Assembly: GCA_030295235.1 (NCBI GenBank)
Contig: AP026164.1
Location: 248,001 to 312,000, forward strand
Direction: 5' to 3'
Source of the DNA: Fistulifera solaris
Lineage: Eukaryota
DNA length: 64,000 nucleotides
Shown here: positions 20,133-40,480 of the stretch, in pieces
Layout of the letters: each line of letters starts with the position of its first letter
How positions within the stretch are numbered: the stretch's first letter is position 1
Position numbers and translations under genes: made by a program
The notes under the pieces: generated by a model
The model's database searches: none
Seen by the model: only the letters and a program-made list of their open reading frames with translations
Told to the model about the DNA's origin: nothing

Positions 20133-21813
20133 TCAGTAGATTTTTGAGCAAACATTCTCTTCACTGTCTAAAATGTTTCGAATCCGTCCATCCACAACGG
20201 GGTGAATGGCAAAAGGATCGACCATAGACGTTCGGACTTTTTGTTTGAATTTTGTAGCCGCAGCAATTACGGACCCTTGAGAGGTATAATCCGTCCATCT
20301 CCGTAAGATACCGATCTCCGTAAATAAATTGGCCACAGCAGTCGGTAGCAGAGGGCAATATTCTTCGTCACGGACGACCTTCAATTCGGATAAGACATCA
20401 TATCCGTCCTTCCCTTTCAATAAATAAGTCTTTGTACAGAGTGTATATATTCTTTGTAATTCCAAAGGACAAAAGGGAGCTGGTGAGTTGTTATGAGATG
20501 AAGAAGTCGGGGTGTCTTGCCTCTTTGTGAAGACATGAAAAGCACTGTCGACTTCGGACTGTCACGGAGCCCTTCACAATTCTAGAACCGGCTGGTTGTG
20601 AAGGATCAAACGCGAATCGGACACCGTCGACACAAGGAAAACGACCTTCCATGGCAGGATATTGCGAGACTCCATTCTCGAGGACTTGCAAGAGCTGTGC
20701 TCCATTGATTTCAACAACTTCCATGGAATCGTCCATCGGCACCAGGTCGGCCAAATCGCTCATTCGAATATCGCCTCTCGGTAAGATTCGGTCGGCTCTA
20801 ATGGATCCGGAATTCAGTAGCGCAATGTCGGCATCAGTTGCTCGAGCCATGACACTGGCGAGGAAGTTGGCAACATTCGTTTCCTTAGTTCGGATCTGCG
20901 AAAACCTGGCATCGAGATCCACTTTGCTTTTCCCAACGACAATATTCATGCTTTTCTGTACATCCGACTGGATCGCTTTCACTATTGCCGCGATCTCGGA
21001 ATCTTCCGGCGTGTCATTTGATATCTGATAGCGTGTCGACACTGTTTTCAATGAAGCATACATTCCAGTAGATGCATCGATACATTGACTCTCTCTACCG
21101 TATATTCGAATCGCAGTGAAATCACTGAAGTCAGTTCCGGAATTTAAAATGCGAATTCGGTTTCGCACGGTATCTTCGTAGTGGTGGTCGTGTCCACCTA
21201 AGATGATATCAATTTGTCCAGCACACTCGTCCGCAAGCTTGTAGTCGCTGGGCATCCTCATATGACTTGTAGCAATAACAATATCAAACGGTCCATATTC
21301 CTGAACGATTTCGGGTACTCTCCTCTTTACGTAGTCTGTTGGTTCTTCGAATTCAATCGACTCTGGTTCCACGGTCGACAATGTCGCCATCCACGATGCT
21401 TCAATGAGACCGAGCACCAAAAGGCGGTTCCCATTCCTCTCTAGTATAACGTATTCTTCACAGCCTGCTAGTTGCTGTGACTGTTCGTCTTCGTTTTGAC
21501 GGACATTCCGTGCATTCGAACAAATCCACGGAAATCCACTTTGCTCACGGAGTGCGATAAACTCGGGAACACCAAAATCCAAGTCATGATTCCCCAAGCA
21601 CGCGCAATCAATGTTGAGTGCTTTAAGTACAGGGATCATCTGTTTACCTCGGAGACTAGTTGAAAGAAGTGATGGCGAGAAGGCATCTCCACTAAAAAAG
21701 GTACAAGAGGAGTGACCGGTCTTTTGCTGTATTTCGTGCACCTTATGCACAAAACGGGCCGCTTTCTCGACATTGTAGACGTCATTGAAGTGAATAAGCG
21801 TGATTTCTTTCAT
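20133..21813 (-). CDS. 5'-nucleotidase / UDP-sugar hydrolase family metallophosphoesterase (frameshift ~20520)
   Basis: IHFNDVYN, SGDAFSPS, LGNHDLDFG, LGGHDHHY, NSGSIRAD, GRFPCVDG, GKDGYD. Confidence 0.92.
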
Positions 21814-22302
21814 TTTATCAATGTTCTCCGAGTAATAATACGGTCGCAATCCATGAAAAGAAGATTTTATTCGGAGGTTTTATTGTGAGCGTTGTTGCTG
21901 CTGCAGGTATGTTCGTCCATTTTGAAATAGACGGATATTCTGTCTGCACGGCTGTGCTCTGGACTGTACTGTACAAAGTGCTCGTCCGTTGTTCACCACG
22001 ACTGCATCTCAGTCATGAGTCCCTATTTTCTCAATAAGCCAAAGACGAATCTGTAATCACCAAATTCCGTCCGTTTTTCTAGATTTGCCATTTAAATTTC
22101 AAATGTAGCTAATAGAGAACGACGAGCCCAATTTCATTGCAGAGGCGTTTTGTTGTTGCATAAATACGTCACGAGTAGGTAACGGGTAACGAGGACTCAG
22201 ATGTTGACTTGCTCGCGTGCGTAGCAGGAAGAGAGGCTGATTTTAGATACTGATATTGGAGTCGCACCTTGCGACGCGGAACAGGGAGACCGAGAGGATG
22301 GA

Positions 22303-23079: not shown

Positions 23080-23949
23080 TTATATGTTGAGCGCAACCTT
23101 ACGGGCTTCCTCCAGAATGATAGTCGTCCAATAGAGCTGCAAGAATCCTAATGGAAGATTCATTCCGAGGAAGACATAGAGAACCCATTCTACACCAGGA
23201 CGGAGCTTCGTGGCCTGACCCGATTGCATGACTTTGTAGCAATCTTGAAAAAGCTGTAAACTTATGGGCCACCAGTAAATTACTCGAAAGAGAATGAAAG
23301 TGATAGCAAATGGTGGCGCCACAAAAGTTCCTACAATTTGATCAAAGATAGAGCCCGGCGTTGGTGGAAAGTACCTAGACAAGTCCACAAAGACCAAAAA
23401 GACGCTACTGACTTCCGAAAGCCCCAGAAAGAAGACTCCATAATGTTGCAAGCACTGATATCGGACGGAACACCACGACACAGACGCCGCCATGAAATGA
23501 TGGGTGAGCATGATCGCGGTCCGATGCTCTTCAATGAGTAGAGAAATAATAAAATCCCAGAGTTGAAAAGTGAAACAGATAGCTGCCGTTAGTTCCGCCT
23601 CCGGAAGGTATCCAAACAATCGACCTTCGGGTGTCTGGGGAACTGCGGTATGAGAGCGTCTGGTAATAAACCAAGTGTAGACACCCAAGACAGCGCAACA
23701 GAAGAGTGCCAGACAACTCGTCACCTGGAACGCGAAAAGATCTGAACGAGAGCATATTTGATCATCCTTCACATTCTTGCAAAATTCCTCTCCCGCTCCG
23801 GGTAAGCCAAGGATCGATGTCGACTCGCGAAAAGTATATTCCAAAGAGAAATACAGGACCGTGAGTAGCGTCAGCCCCGTGATGATGTACGGCATCATCC
23901 GGGGAACTCCGTTGGGGATTGTTGCCGGTACATTTAATGATTTCGGCAT
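23080..23949 (-). CDS. TLC (TRAM/LAG1/CLN8) domain membrane protein
   Basis: Multiple TM helices, LWDF, MLTHH, LSEVSSVFL, FILFRV, LQLYW. Confidence 0.85.
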   Translation of the reverse strand: MPKSLNVPATIPNGVPRMMPYIITGLTLLTVLYFSLEYTFRESTSILGLPGAGEEFCKNVKDDQICSRSDLFAFQVTSCLALFCCAVLGVYTWFITRRSHTAVPQTPEGRLFGYLPEAELTAAICFTFQLWDFIISLLIEEHRTAIMLTHHFMAASVSWCSVRYQCLQHYGVFFLGLSEVSSVFLVFVDLSRYFPPTPGSIFDQIVGTFVAPPFAITFILFRVIYWWPISLQLFQDCYKVMQSGQATKLRPGVEWVLYVFLGMNLPLGFLQLYWTTIILEEARKVALNI

Positions 23950-24262
23950 TTGATTTATCTATTGATTTTTTCGTTTTGTAGATGAATGAATGATGGCTTC
24001 TTATTTTGCCTTTATGTCATCGTTATAGATTAGTCGTCTTCACAAAATGCCATATCGTACCGGTTTCAAAAATCTGCTCCCAAAATCTGTCGCATCGCTT
24101 CATCATGTCGTCGTTCGTCGTCTTCTGTGGCTCTTATTATCACTTATTTTTTGTTTCTCGTTTCTCGTTGTTGCAGTTCATCTTGTCACCAAGAAACCCT
24201 GTCAAGTGTTTTATTATTATTGTGTAAAATAACTCGGTTTGATTGACAAACACGAGCTGATA

Positions 24263-28783: not shown

Positions 28784-30809
28784 ATGGTATCTTCTCCATT
28801 CAAACCTGGCAACTTTTTAGCCGCTGTTGCGATCGCTTCGGTGATTGCCCAAACGGCAGCTTTCTCCTCTCAAGGGTAAGGATTTTGAATTGGGCAACAA
28901 TGTTGGCATTAGGCTTGCCGTTCATCTCCGACTAGTCAGTCATTTGACTTGATTTCTAACAAAAACCCGCTCTTCATTCACTTATCTTTGCAGACGGTTC
29001 CATCTATCCGTCTCGAACGCGCGCTCGTTCGTTCAGCCGAAACCTCTTGGCTTCGCGTCTATCACTTCCACATCTTTGGAGGCCCATTTGAATGACAATG
29101 CATCCCAGACAGTCCCCTTGAAGCGCCGTGTCGCTGCAAAGGTACGTATTTCGTGCTTCACAGTCGTATCCTGAACTATCGATTTGATCATCTAACACAA
29201 TGTACGCACTTATGACAAACAGATTCTTAGTAGGGTGGCTTTCGGTTTCTGCTCACTCGCTCTCTTGCACATGGCGACGTTGGAACCAGCCAATGCTGCC
29301 CGAAAGGCCAAAAAAGCAGTCGAGGTTCCTTTGCACCTTGGACAGAAAATCGCAAACTACTTCCGTACCTTTGGAATCCCTGATCTAGGCGTTCTTACGA
29401 TCATCTCCGCTTTGCCCATTGTCGAGCTTCGTGGGGCTATTCCGGTCGGCATCTGGATGGGTTTACCGATTTCGAAAGTCTTGCCCGTTTGCATCTTGGG
29501 AAACATGATTCCGATTCTCCCTCTTCTATTATTGCTCCGAAACAAGACGTTGAAAAATGCCATGAATCCTATTCTCACTCAGGCGGAGAAGAAAACTAAG
29601 GAACTCGGTATCGGTTCAGTACAAAAGCAATGGGCTTCTCTTGCTACCTTTGTTGGTATTCCCTTGCCGGGAACCGGTGCCTGGACGGGTGCCATGGGAG
29701 CCTTCTTGCTCGGTATGCCTCTTGCTGTTGCCTTCACCTCGATTTTCGCCGGTGTTGTTTCGGCTGGTGTGATCATGACCGCCATCACTCTTGCCGGAAA
29801 AGCTGGTGGAATCGCCGCTCTCGCTGCCTTGTTGCTTTATGCCGGCATTGAGCTTTCCAAAGGCGGTTCGTCGAGTGGCAAGCAAGACTTTTTGGAAGCC
29901 GAACCTTACTGGGATCAGACCAACGTCTCCGTCAATGTCTACAAGAACAAAGCTCCTTTTGTCGGAAAGGTCATCTCCACGAAGCGAATTGTCGGCCCCA
30001 AGGCAACTGGTGAGACTTGCCACATCATCATTGACCACAAAGGCGATTTCCCGTACTGGGAGGGACAATCCTGGGGTGTCATTCCTCCCGGTGTACGTGA
30101 GAAGGACGGAAAGCCACACAGTGTCCGTCTTTACTCTATCGCCTCTTCCCGTTATGGTGATGACATGACCGGAAAGACGGGAAGTCTTTGCGTTCGTCGT
30201 GCCACTTACTGGTGCCCGGAGTTAAAGGCTGACGATCCCGCCAAGAAGGGTATCTGCTCCAACTTCTTGTGTGACACCAAGCCTGGAGATGAAGTTCAAA
30301 TGACTGGCCCCGCTGGTAAAGTGATGCTTCTACCGGAAGAGAACCCCAACACGGACTACATCATGGTGGGAACCGGAACTGGTGTTGCTCCCTACCGTGG
30401 CTTCATTCGAAGATTGTTTGTCGAGAATACTCCCGCCGCGGAAGCCTATAAGGGACAAGCCTGGTTGTTCCTTGGTGTTGCTAACAGCGACGCTCTCCTT
30501 TACGACGACGAGTGGCAAGCGGTCAAGAAAGAACACCCGGAACAGTTCCGCTTGGACTATGCACTCTCTCGTGAACAGACGAACGCTAAAGGTGGTAAGA
30601 TGTACATTCAAGATAAGATTGAAGAGTATGCGGATGAAGTTTTCAACAAGCTTGAGAATGGTGCCGTCATTTATTTTTGCGGACTCAAGGGCATGATGCC
30701 TGGAATTCAGGAGATGCTTGAGACTGTTGCCAAGAAGAAGGGTATTGACTACGAAGAGTGGATCAAGGGCCTGAAAGCTAAGAAGCAGTGGAGAGTTGAG
30801 GTTTATTAA
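28784..30809 (+). CDS. petH: Plastid fusion protein: COG2426/Sm_multidrug_ex membrane domain + ferredoxin-NADP+ reductase; exons 28784-28875, 28994-29141, 29223-30809 (608 aa)
   Basis: Spliced frame is open. TAA-F presequence; [13 protein letters not shown] and [18 protein letters not shown] motifs [43 protein letters not shown]. Confidence 0.93.
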
Positions 30810-31919: not shown

Positions 31920-33032
31920 ATGTCGACGACTCCTCAAACCGACCGCCTTCCGCTCCGAAAGCGATTTGGGCAGTTCTTCAAGAAACTTACTACTCCTAGA
32001 GCTCCAGCAACAAGAGCTAGAACCCGAGCACCGTAAGTGCAGCTTTGTTGTTGTCCTGCAGATGTTTGCGGCACCGCCTCATTTGACTTCTTCTTCTTCT
32101 TTTCAATGATGCATTAGACCTCGTGATGACCAATTTCATTACGTTATCTCCGCTGCCCAGGAAGACGAGATTCGAGAAAGCTTTCTCATTGAAAAGTTGA
32201 GGGGTTACACACAGGTATGTTGCTGTGAATGGTCCCATGCGGTTGTCGAATTGAATTGAGGATAATGACTGTGTGTTTTCTTCGTTGCTATGAACACCTC
32301 TAACTCTGCGCTTCGGCTACTTTGCAGAGTCTGACCGATTCCGATTTCGAATCGATTATGATGGACAAGAGTGATGCTGATAACAGCATCGAAGACTCCT
32401 GTGAGAAAGACGACGACTGTGAAGCCGAGAATGGCTTTATTTTTGTTCCCTTGCCAGGGACTAAATGTCATGACGATTCTGTCGATGACGCAGAAAAAAT
32501 GAACCGCAAAGTTCCCAATAGTTGCGCCATTTGCCTCTCGTCTTTTGAGCCCGAGGATCGTGTTACGTGGTCATCTAACAAGGAATGCACGCATGTATTT
32601 CATCACTCATGCATCATTGATTGGCTCAATTCGAGTGGTCGCAGACAGTTGAGGAGACGAAGGCGTCAGGGCCAACAAGAAGGCGTATTCAATTATGCCA
32701 ATGACCCGTTACGAAAGATTACTCGATTCCCTATGCCATGCCCGTGTTGTCGCCAGGTGTTTGCTTTGTGTTCCGAGACAAACGAGAACGCCGCCGAAGA
32801 AGTTGCTCCCGCACAGCCGGCACCAAGTTCAGAATCGGCACATGCAAGCGCTGTCACTGGTGACGACCACCCGGAACAATTAGCTGAATCTGTTGAAACT
32901 GCTGTTCCTACTGAGGACTTGGATGAGCCGGAAGACTCTTCTTGCGTTTCCGACGAAGCCGCGATTGACGACGATGCCTGCACCACTGACATGACTCCTA
33001 TGACTGCTTTGACGTGCCCGATCGCAGTGTAG
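31920..33032 (+). CDS. RING-H2 zinc-finger protein (putative E3 ligase); exons 31920-32032, 32118-32214, 32328-33032
   Basis: CAICLSSF...CTHVFHHSCIIDWL...CPCCR; phase-consistent GT-AG introns. Confidence 0.85.
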
Positions 33033-35669: not shown

Positions 35670-35729
35670 CGTCGAGAGGTCTTGAACTAGACAGAATCAA
35701 TCCACCATCTCTTTCATTTCCACACAACT

Positions 35730-36870
35730 ATGTTAACAATGAATTGCTGGCACGCAGTAAGCTTACTACTCGCATTGACAAGAGTACAGTCTTTCACAAC
35801 ACCCGTGTCGGTGGCCTATCACACGAGACCGACGCGCCTCTTGTCGGCCGCTGTCGCTGTCAATGGAGACACTTCTGTGCATGTTAATGGTAGTGATGGT
35901 GAAAATACAATGACAATTCGATTGAATGTTTACGAGAAAGCCCGAACTGTCACTTCTGTGTGCACATCCGGAACTCTCTGTACGATTTCCTCACATGAAG
36001 GGATTGACGGTTCACCGTTCGGATCTTTTGTTGATTACGTCCTTGATGACGACGGCAACCCCGTCTTTCTTATGAATGAAATGAGTATGCATACAATCAA
36101 TATCAAGAATGCACAACAGCGAATGAAAGACGACAACAATCCTGCGGCCATGGTCACATTATTCACTCAATTGGGCGGAAACACAAACAACAACAACGAC
36201 GGTCCGTCCTTTGGACCAGGTAGTTCGAGCAACTTGGGAAATAAAGGTTTACAGGATGTTTCCCGTTGTTCCTTGACGGGACGTTTGGAAAAGTTGACTG
36301 CCGATGCACCGGATATGGATGCTATACGAATGCGTTATTCCATTACTCACGTCTACGCCGATCAGGTCATGGACTCTCCCAAATTCGCCTTTTACCGCTT
36401 GATTCCCGATAAAATTTATTTTGTAGGTGGATTCGGTGTTCTTTCCACGTGGGTTGATCCCGAAGATTACAAAATGCCAATCCGGATATTCTCGCGACAC
36501 AAGCCGCCGGAATATGTGCACGCATCAATCGTGATCACGACGAAGACTTGCGTTTCACGGCACAGCACTTATTGAACATTGCTCCCAAAATGCTGACGCG
36601 ATTGAAAGTGTCCGCGTGACCACGGTCGATCGATTGGGGATGGATTTGCGTGTCACCGCTCAGCAGGGGACACGGAGAAACAAACTGCAGACGGATGAAT
36701 TCCGTATTGGGTTCCGCATTCCCGTCCAGTCAGTAGAAGACGCCAAGTCAGAGATTCTCAAAATCTTTCAAGAAGCCTGGGAGAAAGGCAACGGTGTTGA
36801 ATGGGGCGATAACGAGGTTCCCGGAGAGTCTGTACCGATCATGAAGATTGCGGCGGATAGTCTAGAATAA
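35730..36870 (+). CDS. Plastid HugZ/pyridoxamine-oxidase-like heme-binding protein with a DUF2470 (GluTR-binding-protein-like) domain; frameshifts ~36472, ~36588
   Basis: QS-F presequence; SGTLCT, PFGSFVDY, HTINI, YFVGGFG, PDILA, VDRLGMDLRV, FRIGF. Confidence 0.85.
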
Positions 36871-37737: not shown

Positions 37738-38355
37738 TCAATCATTGTGCTGTCTATTCACGGCAGCAAGTCCCGGAACGGGCAAGATACGCACAAACAT
37801 TAAATGCCCCACCGCCAACCCAGCTGCCACCGAGAACAAAAGCTCCAGTGAATACATCATGGCCACGATCATAATGACATACCCCAGAAGCGACTGCAAC
37901 GCATAAATGAGGACGAGAGCGATCTTTCGAAAGGGTTTGCTGGGTGCCTGTGTGCGAAGAATCCATTCACGGAATGCGGAAATGGCTTCCATGACGATGG
38001 CCAAGAGAAAGGAAAAGACCATGGCTCCGCGAAATTCCTTCGGGCTGGCCAGTAACCATGAATTGAATAGATAATTCAGGCATTGCTGTTGTTCTTGTGA
38101 TGATTGCCAAGGACGACCATCTTCATCAACAGAATTGCCTTTCATCTTTAAAGACCAGTGGAAACCATCCATAAACATAGTCATGGGCATGCCTGCGCAA
38201 AAGGTAGACGACGACGAAGAATCATCATTATTGTCGTTCTCGGAATGGGAGTGCATCGAATCGTGCTCATGGCCAGCCCCGGCAGTGTTGCGGCTCAAGT
38301 ATACCAGAACAACTATTGCTATGGACGACAACCTGAAAGCTTTGTGCAGCAGCAT
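37738..38355 (-). CDS. Ctr-family copper transporter
   Basis: His/Met-rich N-terminus (HEHDSMHSH, MPMTMFM), YLFNSW, GYVIMIVAMMY (MxxxM), GLAVG. Confidence 0.9.
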   Translation of the reverse strand: MLLHKAFRLSSIAIVVLVYLSRNTAGAGHEHDSMHSHSENDNNDDSSSSSTFCAGMPMTMFMDGFHWSLKMKGNSVDEDGRPWQSSQEQQQCLNYLFNSWLLASPKEFRGAMVFSFLLAIVMEAISAFREWILRTQAPSKPFRKIALVLIYALQSLLGYVIMIVAMMYSLELLFSVAAGLAVGHLMFVRILPVPGLAAVNRQHND

Positions 38356-39237
38356 TCTAGTATTTACAATGATGTGATCTAAGTGGCATTTGTTGTTGTG
38401 TTGATCGTCGCGTTTATTGTCGCCCATCGTGTTGATCGTTGATCCTACATACTTGTACTGTACCTGGTACAGTACTGTTATTCGTTATTCGTTATTCTTT
38501 TACCCTCGTGCGGCAAGGATGGCCAACTCATGACTGCATTTGCAGCCATTTCAGTCACAAAAAATCTAGCCTACTCTTCGCACAATACTTTGTAGTTCAC
38601 ACTCCAGCGAGATAGAAATGGGAACCGAATAGAGCGTATTAATCCATCAAAATCTTTTAAAACAAAACTATCGATGAAACCTCTATTTTGATTCAAGTAT
38701 GGGCTACAAGCAAGTGATCAAAGCAGGCTGATTTGCTCGAAAACTATGCTATCGACAGGAAAACGATTGAAACGGCAACAAATTCGTTTACCAATGATAG
38801 CACGAGGTGTATATTTCTATTTAGAGTGTCATTACTAACTATTAAGTTCATTTCGAAACGCAATACCTCGATGAATACCTTTGAAAAGTATCTGGATCAT
38901 ATTATTTTTAGGCTCAAAGTTTTTGGTTCAACAGTACAACGAATGGGTTTCAGTCATGATGATGAACACATCGGAAAACGATTGAAATGGCAACAAATAG
39001 TCTAGGTGCACAAATGGGCACTCCCCTCAAGTCTTGATCTTTGATCGGTCAACGATAGAGGGTCAAAGCAAAGCGATGGGCTCAAAAATACTAGCGGTGC
39101 ACGGCATGGGACCCGAATAATGTCAACAGATGATGACTTAATTATGAGCCTAGTAGGAATTTGAGAAAAAAATACAACAAATCTTGCTGGGTGAGTTTGT
39201 CGACGCTTTAGACCGAATTTATAATTCAGTCCTATTT

Positions 39238-40480
39238 TTACTCGTGTATTCGAACACAACCCATTTGTCTCGCCTTTCCTGGTTTGACTGCCCAGTGTAT
39301 GAAATGATTCCATCCAGCAGAGCCAAATAGAGATTTGACCGTTTCTCGTTCTTCTTCGTCCGTCAAAGAATCACTGCTTTCGGAACAAGTCAAATGATCG
39401 GCAAAGCAAATTGAAGCATTCTCGCCATCGGCCCTGGCCACTTCCCGAAACAACTGAAACAGTTCCTTCGGTAGACCATCGTTCAGAAACATCATGACCC
39501 CTTCAATGACATAAATTGTATGCCAAGTCTCTCCTTGCTTTTTTATTCTGCGGAAATTCAGCTAAAATATCTCTCACTGCATCCAGATCATTCAAGTCGA
39601 CGGCACGCAATTCGGGCAATTGCACGGGTCCCTTTGTTTTCTCTCTACGTTCTTTCAATCGTTCCAACAACGCTCGTTTCCCATGAATGACCACGGGTAA
39701 ATCCAATTCCCAGGCTTCTTGCACGCGAGGATTTTGTGACAGTATACGTGTCGCTCGTACATCATAACCACCACCAATGGCGACCAAACGAATTTTGGTC
39801 GATGAGGGCAAGCGCGCGATTTCTTGTTGAATGCATCGATTCAAAAAGACGGTACGATATTCGACATTGGCATGATGCAAACGTGGATAAAGCGAAATAG
39901 GAATGAGTTTCAAAATCCACCATCGGGAATAGTTGGGCATCATGTCATACGTCCAATCATTGTCTTGGCAGATGGATTGGGGATCAACACTGGTGATTGC
40001 TTTACACCAGAGCACTTTGAGAGCATTTTTGTTTTCGACCGTCACATCATTCCAGTGCAGTAATGGTAGTAAGGCATTGTGCAGTTTCCAGGCTTTTCGA
40101 TAGAGCCATTTGGGAGCATTTGGGAGCGTCGGTCGAACTCCGAGCAAGAGCGCAACGTGCTTTCGTTGTGTCGTTATTGAAGCTGTTGTATTACTGTTAT
40201 TGTGAGAGAGCGATCCGGTAGCTACTAGGAATAGTTTCGTCGTCCAGTAATTGAAATTGGAGACTACCAGGTAATGAATGAAAAGAAAAAAGAAAAAAAG
40301 AAAAATCAAGTGAGATAACGACAGCCAAAAAATGACGATAAGTGTCATTTCACATCACGCGTTTCTCCTTCTCATTTTCTCACCTCTTCCTGTACCAATA
40401 GCGGTCCTCCATGATGACGCCGTCGCGAGTAAAACGGTCAAAAGCAGAAATACACGCCACAATCGTCGTCTGAAATCCAT
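39238..40480 (-). CDS. LCM/leucine carboxyl methyltransferase-like SAM-dependent methyltransferase, probably plastid; intron 40383-40264, frameshifts ~39545 and ~39500
   Basis: Exon 1 MDFRRRLWRVFLLLTVLLATASS-W; RT.FLN, AIGGGYDVR, WELDLP.V, VDLND, EGVMMFL. Confidence 0.8.

Follow-up and report, generated by a model that had tools for sequence, protein, structure and literature searches.

The position of ferredoxin-NADP+ reductase (FNR) is thought to set how the electrons leaving photosystem I (PSI) are split between NADPH production and cyclic flow, and plants and cyanobacteria fix that position with adaptor proteins or with a phycobilisome-binding domain. The plant adaptors Tic62 and TROL are proteins in their own right, to which an FNR dimer is bound non-covalently; in the cyanobacterial CpcD-PetH proteins a fused N-terminal domain, and no partner, positions FNR. 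A large part of ocean photosynthesis is due to diatoms, and their FNR has so far been treated like the plant enzyme; in a cryo-tomography study, the model fitted into stromal densities on diatom PSI was plant FNR (PMC8331139). Here we describe a three-exon gene of the diatom Fistulifera solaris, at positions 28784-30809 (+) of a 64,000-nucleotide stretch of contig AP026164.1 (called the window below), in which a complete FNR is encoded in frame behind a membrane domain of the PF06695 family. The likeness to CpcD-PetH is that a fused N-terminal module would place the enzyme; that module binds the phycobilisome in cyanobacteria, whereas its counterpart in the diatom is a predicted integral membrane protein. 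The proposed outcome is also that of Tic62 and TROL, with FNR held at a plastid membrane, but the link in the diatom is a peptide bond.

PF06695 has been assigned to the DedA superfamily together with TMEM41B, VMP1 and the bacterial DedA proteins (Okawa 2020; Mesdaghi 2020). According to the same two papers, the core of these proteins follows a scheme in which an amphipathic helix comes first, then a re-entrant loop, then a transmembrane (TM) helix, this series occurring twice. Mesdaghi (2020) describes PF06695 proteins as the bare core and interprets the PF06695/DedA fold in silico as a secondary-transporter fold. The PF06695 proteins of diatoms and other ochrophytes have, like TMEM41B, one additional hydrophobic helix on each side of the core, and many diatoms add FNR. 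The F. solaris protein is already public under an FNR name, as are its two Pfam domains. Neither an FNR-PF06695 fusion nor a membrane-integral diatom FNR was described in the literature that we searched, a search whose scope did not include subscription journals and supplements.

Gene model and the junction between the domains

Exon 1 (28784..28875, +) opens with the ATG start and encodes an endoplasmic reticulum (ER)-type signal peptide that ends AQTAA-F (the hyphen marking the boundary), together with the first residues of the transit peptide. Exon 2 (28994..29141, +) is transit-peptide-like and poorly conserved, with a basic end, KRRVAAK. The two introns (28876..28993 and 29142..29222, both +) have GT..AG borders; removal of the first reproduces the annotated protein P0002 exactly, and a DNA contig runs through it. 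Exon 3 (29223..30809, +) contains both domains and includes the stop codon. It begins with a first hydrophobic helix, which we call H1 (29223..29297, +; ending PANA-A), modelled by AlphaFold2 (AF2) as a helix over exon-3 residues 2-19 with a low predicted local distance difference test score (pLDDT). The PF06695 core follows at 29337..29795 (+), with the Pfam match itself at 29424-29774 and helices throughout the AF2 model of this segment, and is succeeded by a last hydrophobic helix, Hlast (29799..29861, +; AF2 helix residues 193-213). A flexible linker of 8 residues, GGSSSGKQ (29862..29885, +; pLDDT below 50 at residues 216-218), leads into the complete FNR domain (29886..30806, +), which comprises the FAD and NADP subdomains, is matched by an NCBIfam model and has the C-terminal end VEVY. 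The stop codon TAA, read from the sequence, is at 30807..30809 (+).

The conceptual spliced product equals P0002 letter for letter over 608 amino acids; P0002 is annotated as 'ferredoxin--NADP+ reductase [Fistulifera solaris]', and the exon-3 query matches it at 100% identity. The original prediction, made from the letters of the window, had proposed one spliced open reading frame (ORF) with a TAA-F signal peptide and a transit peptide, and our three-exon model and the annotated protein agree with it. It had further proposed a Sm_multidrug_ex-type domain, a GGSSSGK linker and a complete FNR in frame, joined without a stop or frameshift. These elements are all present: the quoted motifs can be read, the profile matches fall in one exon, and PF06695, linker and FNR lie within a single stop-free frame (ORF 29196..30809, 537 amino acids), with no intron, stop or frameshift between the membrane domain and FNR. 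In the profile scan that had been suggested as a check, PF06695 and NAD_binding_1 were matched, but FAD_binding_6 was not at E<=0.01.

The junction was also examined in assembly contigs from public sequencing runs. Contigs from three runs, at 29696-29876, 29852-30056 and 29806-30035, cover it without a single difference, insertion, deletion or joint. Because one contig from the public runs crosses both introns, these runs are of DNA and are silent on expression. A second contig set from the same study (29435-30707) differs at 25 sites, 15 of them in the membrane part, and every difference is synonymous. This set fits another allele or subgenome, and thus two copies that would be under purifying selection. 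Within the 64-kb window, tblastn found this FNR copy only and no second one.

These data bear on the alternative in which an assembly or annotation artefact has fused two adjacent genes. We found nothing in its favor. Against it, the two domains share one uninterrupted exon, independent DNA contigs bridge the junction, the differences in the second copy are all synonymous, and a motif count gave 126 homologues with both domains, transcripts of other diatoms among them. The artefact is effectively refuted, and we regard the fusion gene as confirmed.

The FNR domain and the membrane domain

The FNR half is complete and is closest to root-type FNR. NCBIfam FNR PetH matches exon-3 residues 231-528 (E 1.7e-105), and PF00175 (NAD_binding_1) matches residues 381-496 (E 6.6e-24, 85 bits against a cut-off of 22). 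PF00970 (FAD_binding_6) gave no match at E<=0.01 in the fused protein, and reached E 0.015 in the paralogue P0389. The two-domain fold, a FAD-binding beta-barrel and a NADP-binding Rossmann-like domain, is present in the AF2 model, whose mean pLDDT is 89.1 at full length and mostly above 90 in the FNR part. The closest sequences in the PDB are of maize root FNR (E 1.7e-129), with leaf FNRs at about 1e-90, and Foldseek superposed the FNR domain on the maize root enzyme 5h59 with a target TM-score (TMt) of 0.92, a root-mean-square deviation (rmsd) of 1.5-1.6 A and 61% identity. The motifs RLYSIAS, GTGxAP, CGxKGM and a C-terminal aromatic residue are catalytic or cofactor motifs of FNR, and an alignment of 25 fused proteins shows little or no variation in RLYSIAS, GTGxAP, CGLKGM and the C-terminal Tyr. 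The predicted activity is ferredoxin-dependent NADP+ reduction.

Comparison with described FNRs places this half more closely. With the plant root enzymes (maize 5h59, 3lo8 and 1jb9) it shares the FAD/NADP fold, the catalytic motifs and the C-terminal Tyr. Plant FNRs are soluble after import, whereas the diatom protein has about 220 residues of predicted integral membrane domain in front of the enzyme. The KQDFLEA..PY motif at the start of the diatom FNR recurs only in FNRs from algae that have complex plastids, and not in the plant enzymes. Foldseek also returned the pea FNR chain of 3mhp, an entry entitled 'FNR-recruitment to the thylakoid', as a structural match to the FNR domain. As a separate observation, identity to root-type FNR is 61% (435 bits), versus about 48% (about 308 bits) to leaf-type FNR, and in the FNR tree the Artemisia root isozyme groups with the complex-plastid algae and not with the pair formed by moss and cyanobacterial sequences.

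We also considered membership in the cyanobacterial PetH or CpcD-PetH families. The NCBIfam model 'bifunc_CpcD_PetH' matches with E 3.3e-103, over profile positions 110-405 that correspond to the FNR part only. The models NF045929 and NF058510 score 353 and 346 bits (profile 114-411 and 110-405) against cut-offs of 600 and 635. With scores below the cut-offs and no CpcD domain, membership in these families was rejected.

The membrane half is recognized along the entire PF06695 (Sm_multidrug_ex) profile (positions 1-121 of 121; exon-3 residues 68-184; E 1e-30, 107-110 bits against a cut-off of 30.7). An AF2 model of this domain by itself is a multi-helix bundle with a pLDDT of 87.6 and a predicted TM-score (pTM) of 0.78. 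Its first elements, in order, are H1 (residues 2-19, low confidence), an amphipathic helix, a helix-turn-helix at ELRG and a long kinked helix. After a basic amphipathic stretch come a second helix-turn-helix at PLPGTGAW, TM2 (167-191), a break, and Hlast (193-213). In the secondary structure, the helix-turn-helix pairs at 54-63/68-78 and 133-145/153-162, with a long helix after each, are candidate re-entrant loops. On this model we read the PF06695 core as a putative amphipathic helix, re-entrant loop 1, TM1, basic loop, re-entrant loop 2 and TM2.

Searches for remote relatives of the membrane domain returned little. With hmmscan there was no PF09335 (DedA) match at E<=10, as expected for a homology so remote; a PDB sequence search gave a chance match only (E 0.93), and Foldseek with the membrane-domain model gave nothing at E<=0.001. 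The best Z in a VIA-align comparison of the model was 5.8. Among the 48,161 chains compared with VIA-align, the rows for the transporters TRAP, ArsB and NaS1 have a Z of about 5 and an rmsd of 6.6-8 A, which is under the noise level for helical models, and we drew no conclusion from them.

The segments of the fused protein differ widely in their conservation. Mean pairwise identity among fused proteins falls from FNR (0.85) and the core (0.78) through Hlast (0.51) and H1 (0.40) to the linker (0.36) and the presequence (0.21). The constraint on the core is nearly FNR-like, which suggests that the core is more than a passive anchor, since such an anchor would not need so much. In the alignment of 25 fused proteins the linker is variable in length and has no conserved cleavage motif, and the membrane domain has no conserved Cys/His pairs or clusters of the kind that would suggest a redox cofactor.

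Distribution of the fused and the separate forms

Our homologue searches listed the best 120 matches each, and the statements on taxa below rest on named rows. With the exon-3 query, all of the best 120 matches listed carry both PF06695 and PF00175, so that the same architecture is present in other diatoms. Seminavis, Epithemia, Chaetoceros, Nitzschia inconspicua and Ditylum are among the sources of fused proteins in the matches listed, and we read the shortened labels 'Leptoc', 'Coreth', 'Dacty' and 'Pseudo-' on further fused proteins as Leptocylindrus, Corethron, Dactyliosolen and Pseudo-nitzschia. Several of the fused matches are MMETSP transcripts of other diatoms marked type:complete. In the ESM Atlas one cluster of 54 members has both domains throughout, with Bacillariophyta as its commonest phylum. 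Clustering at 50% reduced the full-length fused forms to one representative (P0007), after which the next matches are FNRs without PF06695. No name of Phaeodactylum occurs among the matches listed in any search, which is no evidence of absence.

Two further groups of sequences were noted in these searches. P0290 (590 amino acids, in the P0153 cluster) represents a divergent fused PF06695-FNR lineage from metatranscriptomes and metagenomes, which in the membrane-domain tree forms a long branch, with all of the named diatom rows as its sister group; it may lie outside the diatoms or have diverged early. The P0197 cluster (661-665 amino acids, 7 members) has an FNR-like half (about 302-665) behind some 300 N-terminal residues that received no assignment, and it may be another FNR fusion.

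PF06695 also occurs without FNR. Seven non-diatom ochrophytes (Fibrocapsa, Choristocarpus, Octactis, Tribonema, Ectocarpus, Ascophyllum and Discosporangium) have it alone in proteins of about 260-360 amino acids with the same H1, last helix and invariant motifs. Unfused FNR is present in the named non-diatoms Prymnesium, Amorphochlora and Hemiselmis. Within the diatoms, stand-alone PF06695 proteins of about 300 amino acids with an acidic C-terminal tail were found in Skeletonema, Thalassiosira exigua, Cyclotella, Detonula, Cyclostephanos, Conticribra and Nitzschia sp. Nitz4, the last a non-photosynthetic diatom. This diatom set (P0436, P0451, P0492, P0433, P0482, P0491, P0494, P0499 and P0503) includes complete transcripts. 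Okawa (2020) lists a PF06695 protein of Thalassiosira oceanica and leaves ferredoxin unmentioned.

In the membrane-domain tree all diatom rows group together irrespective of fusion (97/93*), separate from the seven non-diatom ochrophytes. Within this clade Nitz4 falls inside the fused Bacillariaceae (96/99*), and the Thalassiosirales rows are interspersed with fused rows without resolution. For the stand-alone PF06695 proteins of the named Thalassiosirales and of Nitz4, secondary fission is a candidate origin. Among the diatoms, Corethron and Leptocylindrus branch early, and because of their place among the fused forms (again, on named rows only) the simplest reading would be one fusion early in diatoms, with later fissions.

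A third arrangement is an FNR with a short anchor. Proteins of this class, of ~420 amino acids, occur in Nitzschia inconspicua (P0389/P0390), Pseudo-nitzschia multistriata (P0340) and Discostella (P0396), with P0383, P0345, P0412 and about 40 more as further members; shortened labels among these we read as Odontella, Minutocellus and Helicotheca. Ahead of the FNR they have, in order, a basic stretch, H1, AxA, AKK..VE..V, a Gly/Ala-rich helix and KQDFLEA. Their FNR domain is 75-88% identical to that of the fused form and has the same basic/H1/AxA/AKK lead-in, but they lack the entire PF06695 core. Both short-anchor genes of N. inconspicua apparently share contigs with the fused genes. Against 94 stand-alone PF06695 proteins, a hidden Markov model (HMM) of the anchor region, built from 44 sequences, gave matches at E<1e-3 (best 5.7e-9) in 47, within the H1 region, and in none of the 94 reversed controls. 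The short-anchor FNR is apparently the fused protein minus its core, its helices seemingly derived from the flanks of the membrane protein. Retention of only the two flanking helices in this paralogue suggests selection for anchoring as such.

Separate soluble FNRs, for which the original prediction had proposed a search in other diatoms, are also found: a 'Coret...'-labelled sequence and proteins of ~340 amino acids have a short transit peptide. With a soluble-type query (P0295), 91 of the best 120 matches listed carry PF00175 only, and many of these 91 belong to the short-anchor class. Among lineages in which the core is separate, Discostella has an FNR with a short anchor; a Cyclotella cryptica FNR groups with it in the FNR tree and has an N-terminus without the anchor pattern.

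In the FNR tree, the fused 'Pseudo-' protein pairs with P. multistriata's short form (99/97*) and the fused 'Coreth' protein with a soluble form (97/89*). Such taxon-wise pairing hints at gene conversion or repeated domain exchange among paralogues.

The separate forms are informative for a functional coupling of the two halves, in which a transporter or scramblase would be gated or driven by the redox state of NADPH or ferredoxin, or in which FNR would pass electrons to a membrane acceptor, for example plastoquinone, for cyclic flow. The retention of the fusion over distant diatom lineages, the conservation of the core (0.78 against 0.85 for FNR), the shortness of the linker and the in-silico reading of the PF06695/DedA fold as a secondary transporter (Mesdaghi 2020) are all in keeping with such coupling. 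On the other hand, PF06695 stands alone in the named Thalassiosirales, in Nitz4 and in the seven non-diatom ochrophytes with the same invariant motifs, a second type of FNR has only the two flanking helices, and the membrane domain is without a conserved Cys/His cluster. We consider coupling rather unlikely. More speculative, and unlikely in our estimation, is the proposal that diatom FNRs all descend from one ancient DedA-superfamily fusion that replaced the arrangement of soluble FNR plus adaptor, and that the fused halves cooperate. FNR might then feed reducing power to a process of the PF06695 domain (quinone or lipid handling, thylakoid biogenesis, or a ferredoxin-plastoquinone cyclic route), or the stromal redox state might gate transport through that domain.

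Membrane attachment, topology and location

A signal peptide with Phe at +1 is a hallmark of diatom plastid import. Of the 25 fused proteins aligned, at least 90% have a Phe after the hydrophobic stretch (F27), and by its AQTAA-F presequence the product should be targeted to the plastid. After the stromal targeting part, the alignment reveals a basic n-region, a hydrophobic region and AxA, with AKK next in nearly all forms. H1 may thus be either the first span or a cleavable signal of the thylakoid type.

The topology that we tested has four spans and two re-entrant loops, with both H1 and Hlast spanning. If they do, FNR shares its side of the membrane with the central basic loop and with the segment that precedes H1. 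This side has on average 14.9 Lys+Arg residues versus 5.5 for the other side, and is the richer one in 25 of 25 fused proteins, which by the positive-inside rule would make it the stromal (n) side. We therefore infer that the catalytic domain of FNR is on the stromal side. Both termini of TMEM41B are cytosolic in the topology given by Okawa (2020), which is the same arrangement. As for the membrane in question, it is putatively the thylakoid.

Taking these observations together, we think it probable that the gene encodes a nucleus-encoded, plastid-targeted, integral-membrane FNR, in which membrane attachment is the selected trait and the core has a role of its own. We favor this explanation because the fusion is widely kept, because the short-anchor paralogue keeps both flanking helices, and because some lineages have split off the core yet keep a short-anchor FNR. 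The origin would lie in an early diatom, where a plastid PF06695 protein of ochrophytes, with two re-entrant loops, two core spans and a hydrophobic helix on either side, gained a complete FNR at its C-terminus. In the present-day protein, the bipartite presequence would first bring about entry into the plastid. H1 would then insert with its N-terminus stromal, with a cut at the lumenal AxA site as a possibility, the PF06695 core would fold within the membrane, and Hlast would return the chain to the stromal face. There the short linker would keep FNR at the membrane surface, where it would transfer electrons from ferredoxin to NADP+. The fusion would do covalently what Tic62 and TROL do for FNR in plants and what the CpcD-like domain does in cyanobacteria, and the PF06695 core would retain a transport or lipid-handling role separable from that of FNR. 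Membrane insertion, an uncleaved linker and a benefit of tethering are presumed in this scheme.

A number of observations weigh against this explanation, or against parts of it. All public runs found for F. solaris are of DNA, so the gene is known here at the DNA level. Hlast has only about 14-17 hydrophobic residues and is maybe too short to span; TM2 and Hlast form one straight helix in the full-length AF2 model, whereas the domain-only model breaks them at residue 192. If Hlast does not span, FNR would lie on the other side of the membrane. The pattern used to count H1 with a small-x-small motif is permissive; it picked up 73 of the 76 fused proteins, 89 of the 90 stand-alone ones and 58 of the 61 with a short anchor. 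In the FNR tree the fused, short-anchor and soluble forms cluster by taxon and many forks are unresolved; because of this grouping we have left the order of duplications and deletions undrawn. The split state in Thalassiosirales, for its part, is based on named rows only. Finally, published work on soluble diatom FNR and on a plant PF06695 protein bears on the fate of the linker and on the membrane concerned, as follows.

Soluble extracts of diatoms reportedly contain FNR activity and protein, and a GAPDH-CP12-FNR complex has been reported as well (PMC5299434, PMC7992989). A soluble FNR must therefore exist, by a separate gene or by cleavage, and cleavage would make the fused product a polyprotein precursor whose linker is cut after import, which would release a free PF06695 protein and a soluble FNR. 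That the parts are separate genes in some diatoms, and that the FNR begins with KQDFLEA..PY like the unfused FNRs of related algae, would also suit a precursor of this kind. A conserved cleavage motif is missing from the linker, which varies in length and is only 0.36 identical; the hydrophobic helix of the short paralogue directly abuts the FNR, suggesting that attachment matters; and the separate soluble-type FNRs (the 'Coret...' sequence and the ~340-residue proteins) could explain the soluble activity. We judge cleavage into two proteins to be improbable.

Plant FNR is also located at the envelope, through Tic62. A location of the diatom protein in the inner plastid envelope instead of the thylakoid would have FNR placed there much as Tic62 places it at the plant translocon (TIC), or would have it supply reactions linked to NADPH or ferredoxin. 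A table of plastid transporters includes the Arabidopsis PF06695 protein At2g02590, under a heading on how transporters are distributed within Plantae, and the passage assigns it no sub-plastid location (PMC2246286). Its inclusion among plastid transporters speaks for the envelope and lends no support to the thylakoid. The resemblance of H1 to a thylakoid-type signal in fused, stand-alone and short-anchor forms speaks, weakly, for the thylakoid, as does the expectation that the main photosynthetic FNR should be close to PSI. An envelope location seems doubtful to us.

The interpretation that had accompanied the original prediction is thus upheld in part. A covalently membrane-anchored FNR is what the conserved architecture, the modelled helix bundle, the charge bias and the short-anchor paralogue point to at the level of sequence. 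The further suggestion of a role for COG2426/PF06695 proteins in the electron or ion flux of thylakoids did not gain support, because both parts also exist as separate genes; the membrane domain also contains no conserved Cys/His pairs.

Were diatom FNRs to be membrane-integral, models of electron partitioning, the assignment of densities associated with PSI and the regulation of the GAPDH-CP12-FNR complex would need to be revisited. The fusion would also be a first physiological lead for PF06695, a widespread family without an assigned function, as it would put this domain in the same membrane as FNR and at the same face. The split forms of Thalassiosirales and the short-anchor paralogue offer a natural experiment that could separate the value of tethering from the role of the core.

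The genes surrounding the fusion in the window are unrelated to FNR and provide no functional context for it. Open-frame matches upstream are to a 5'-nucleotidase/metallophosphatase (20491-21879, -) and a TLC domain (23080-23958, -). Downstream are matches to a RING finger (32304-33032, +), a CREG-like beta-barrel (35691-36575, +), a Ctr copper transporter (37738-38484, -) and a leucine carboxyl methyltransferase (LCM; 39503-40354, -).

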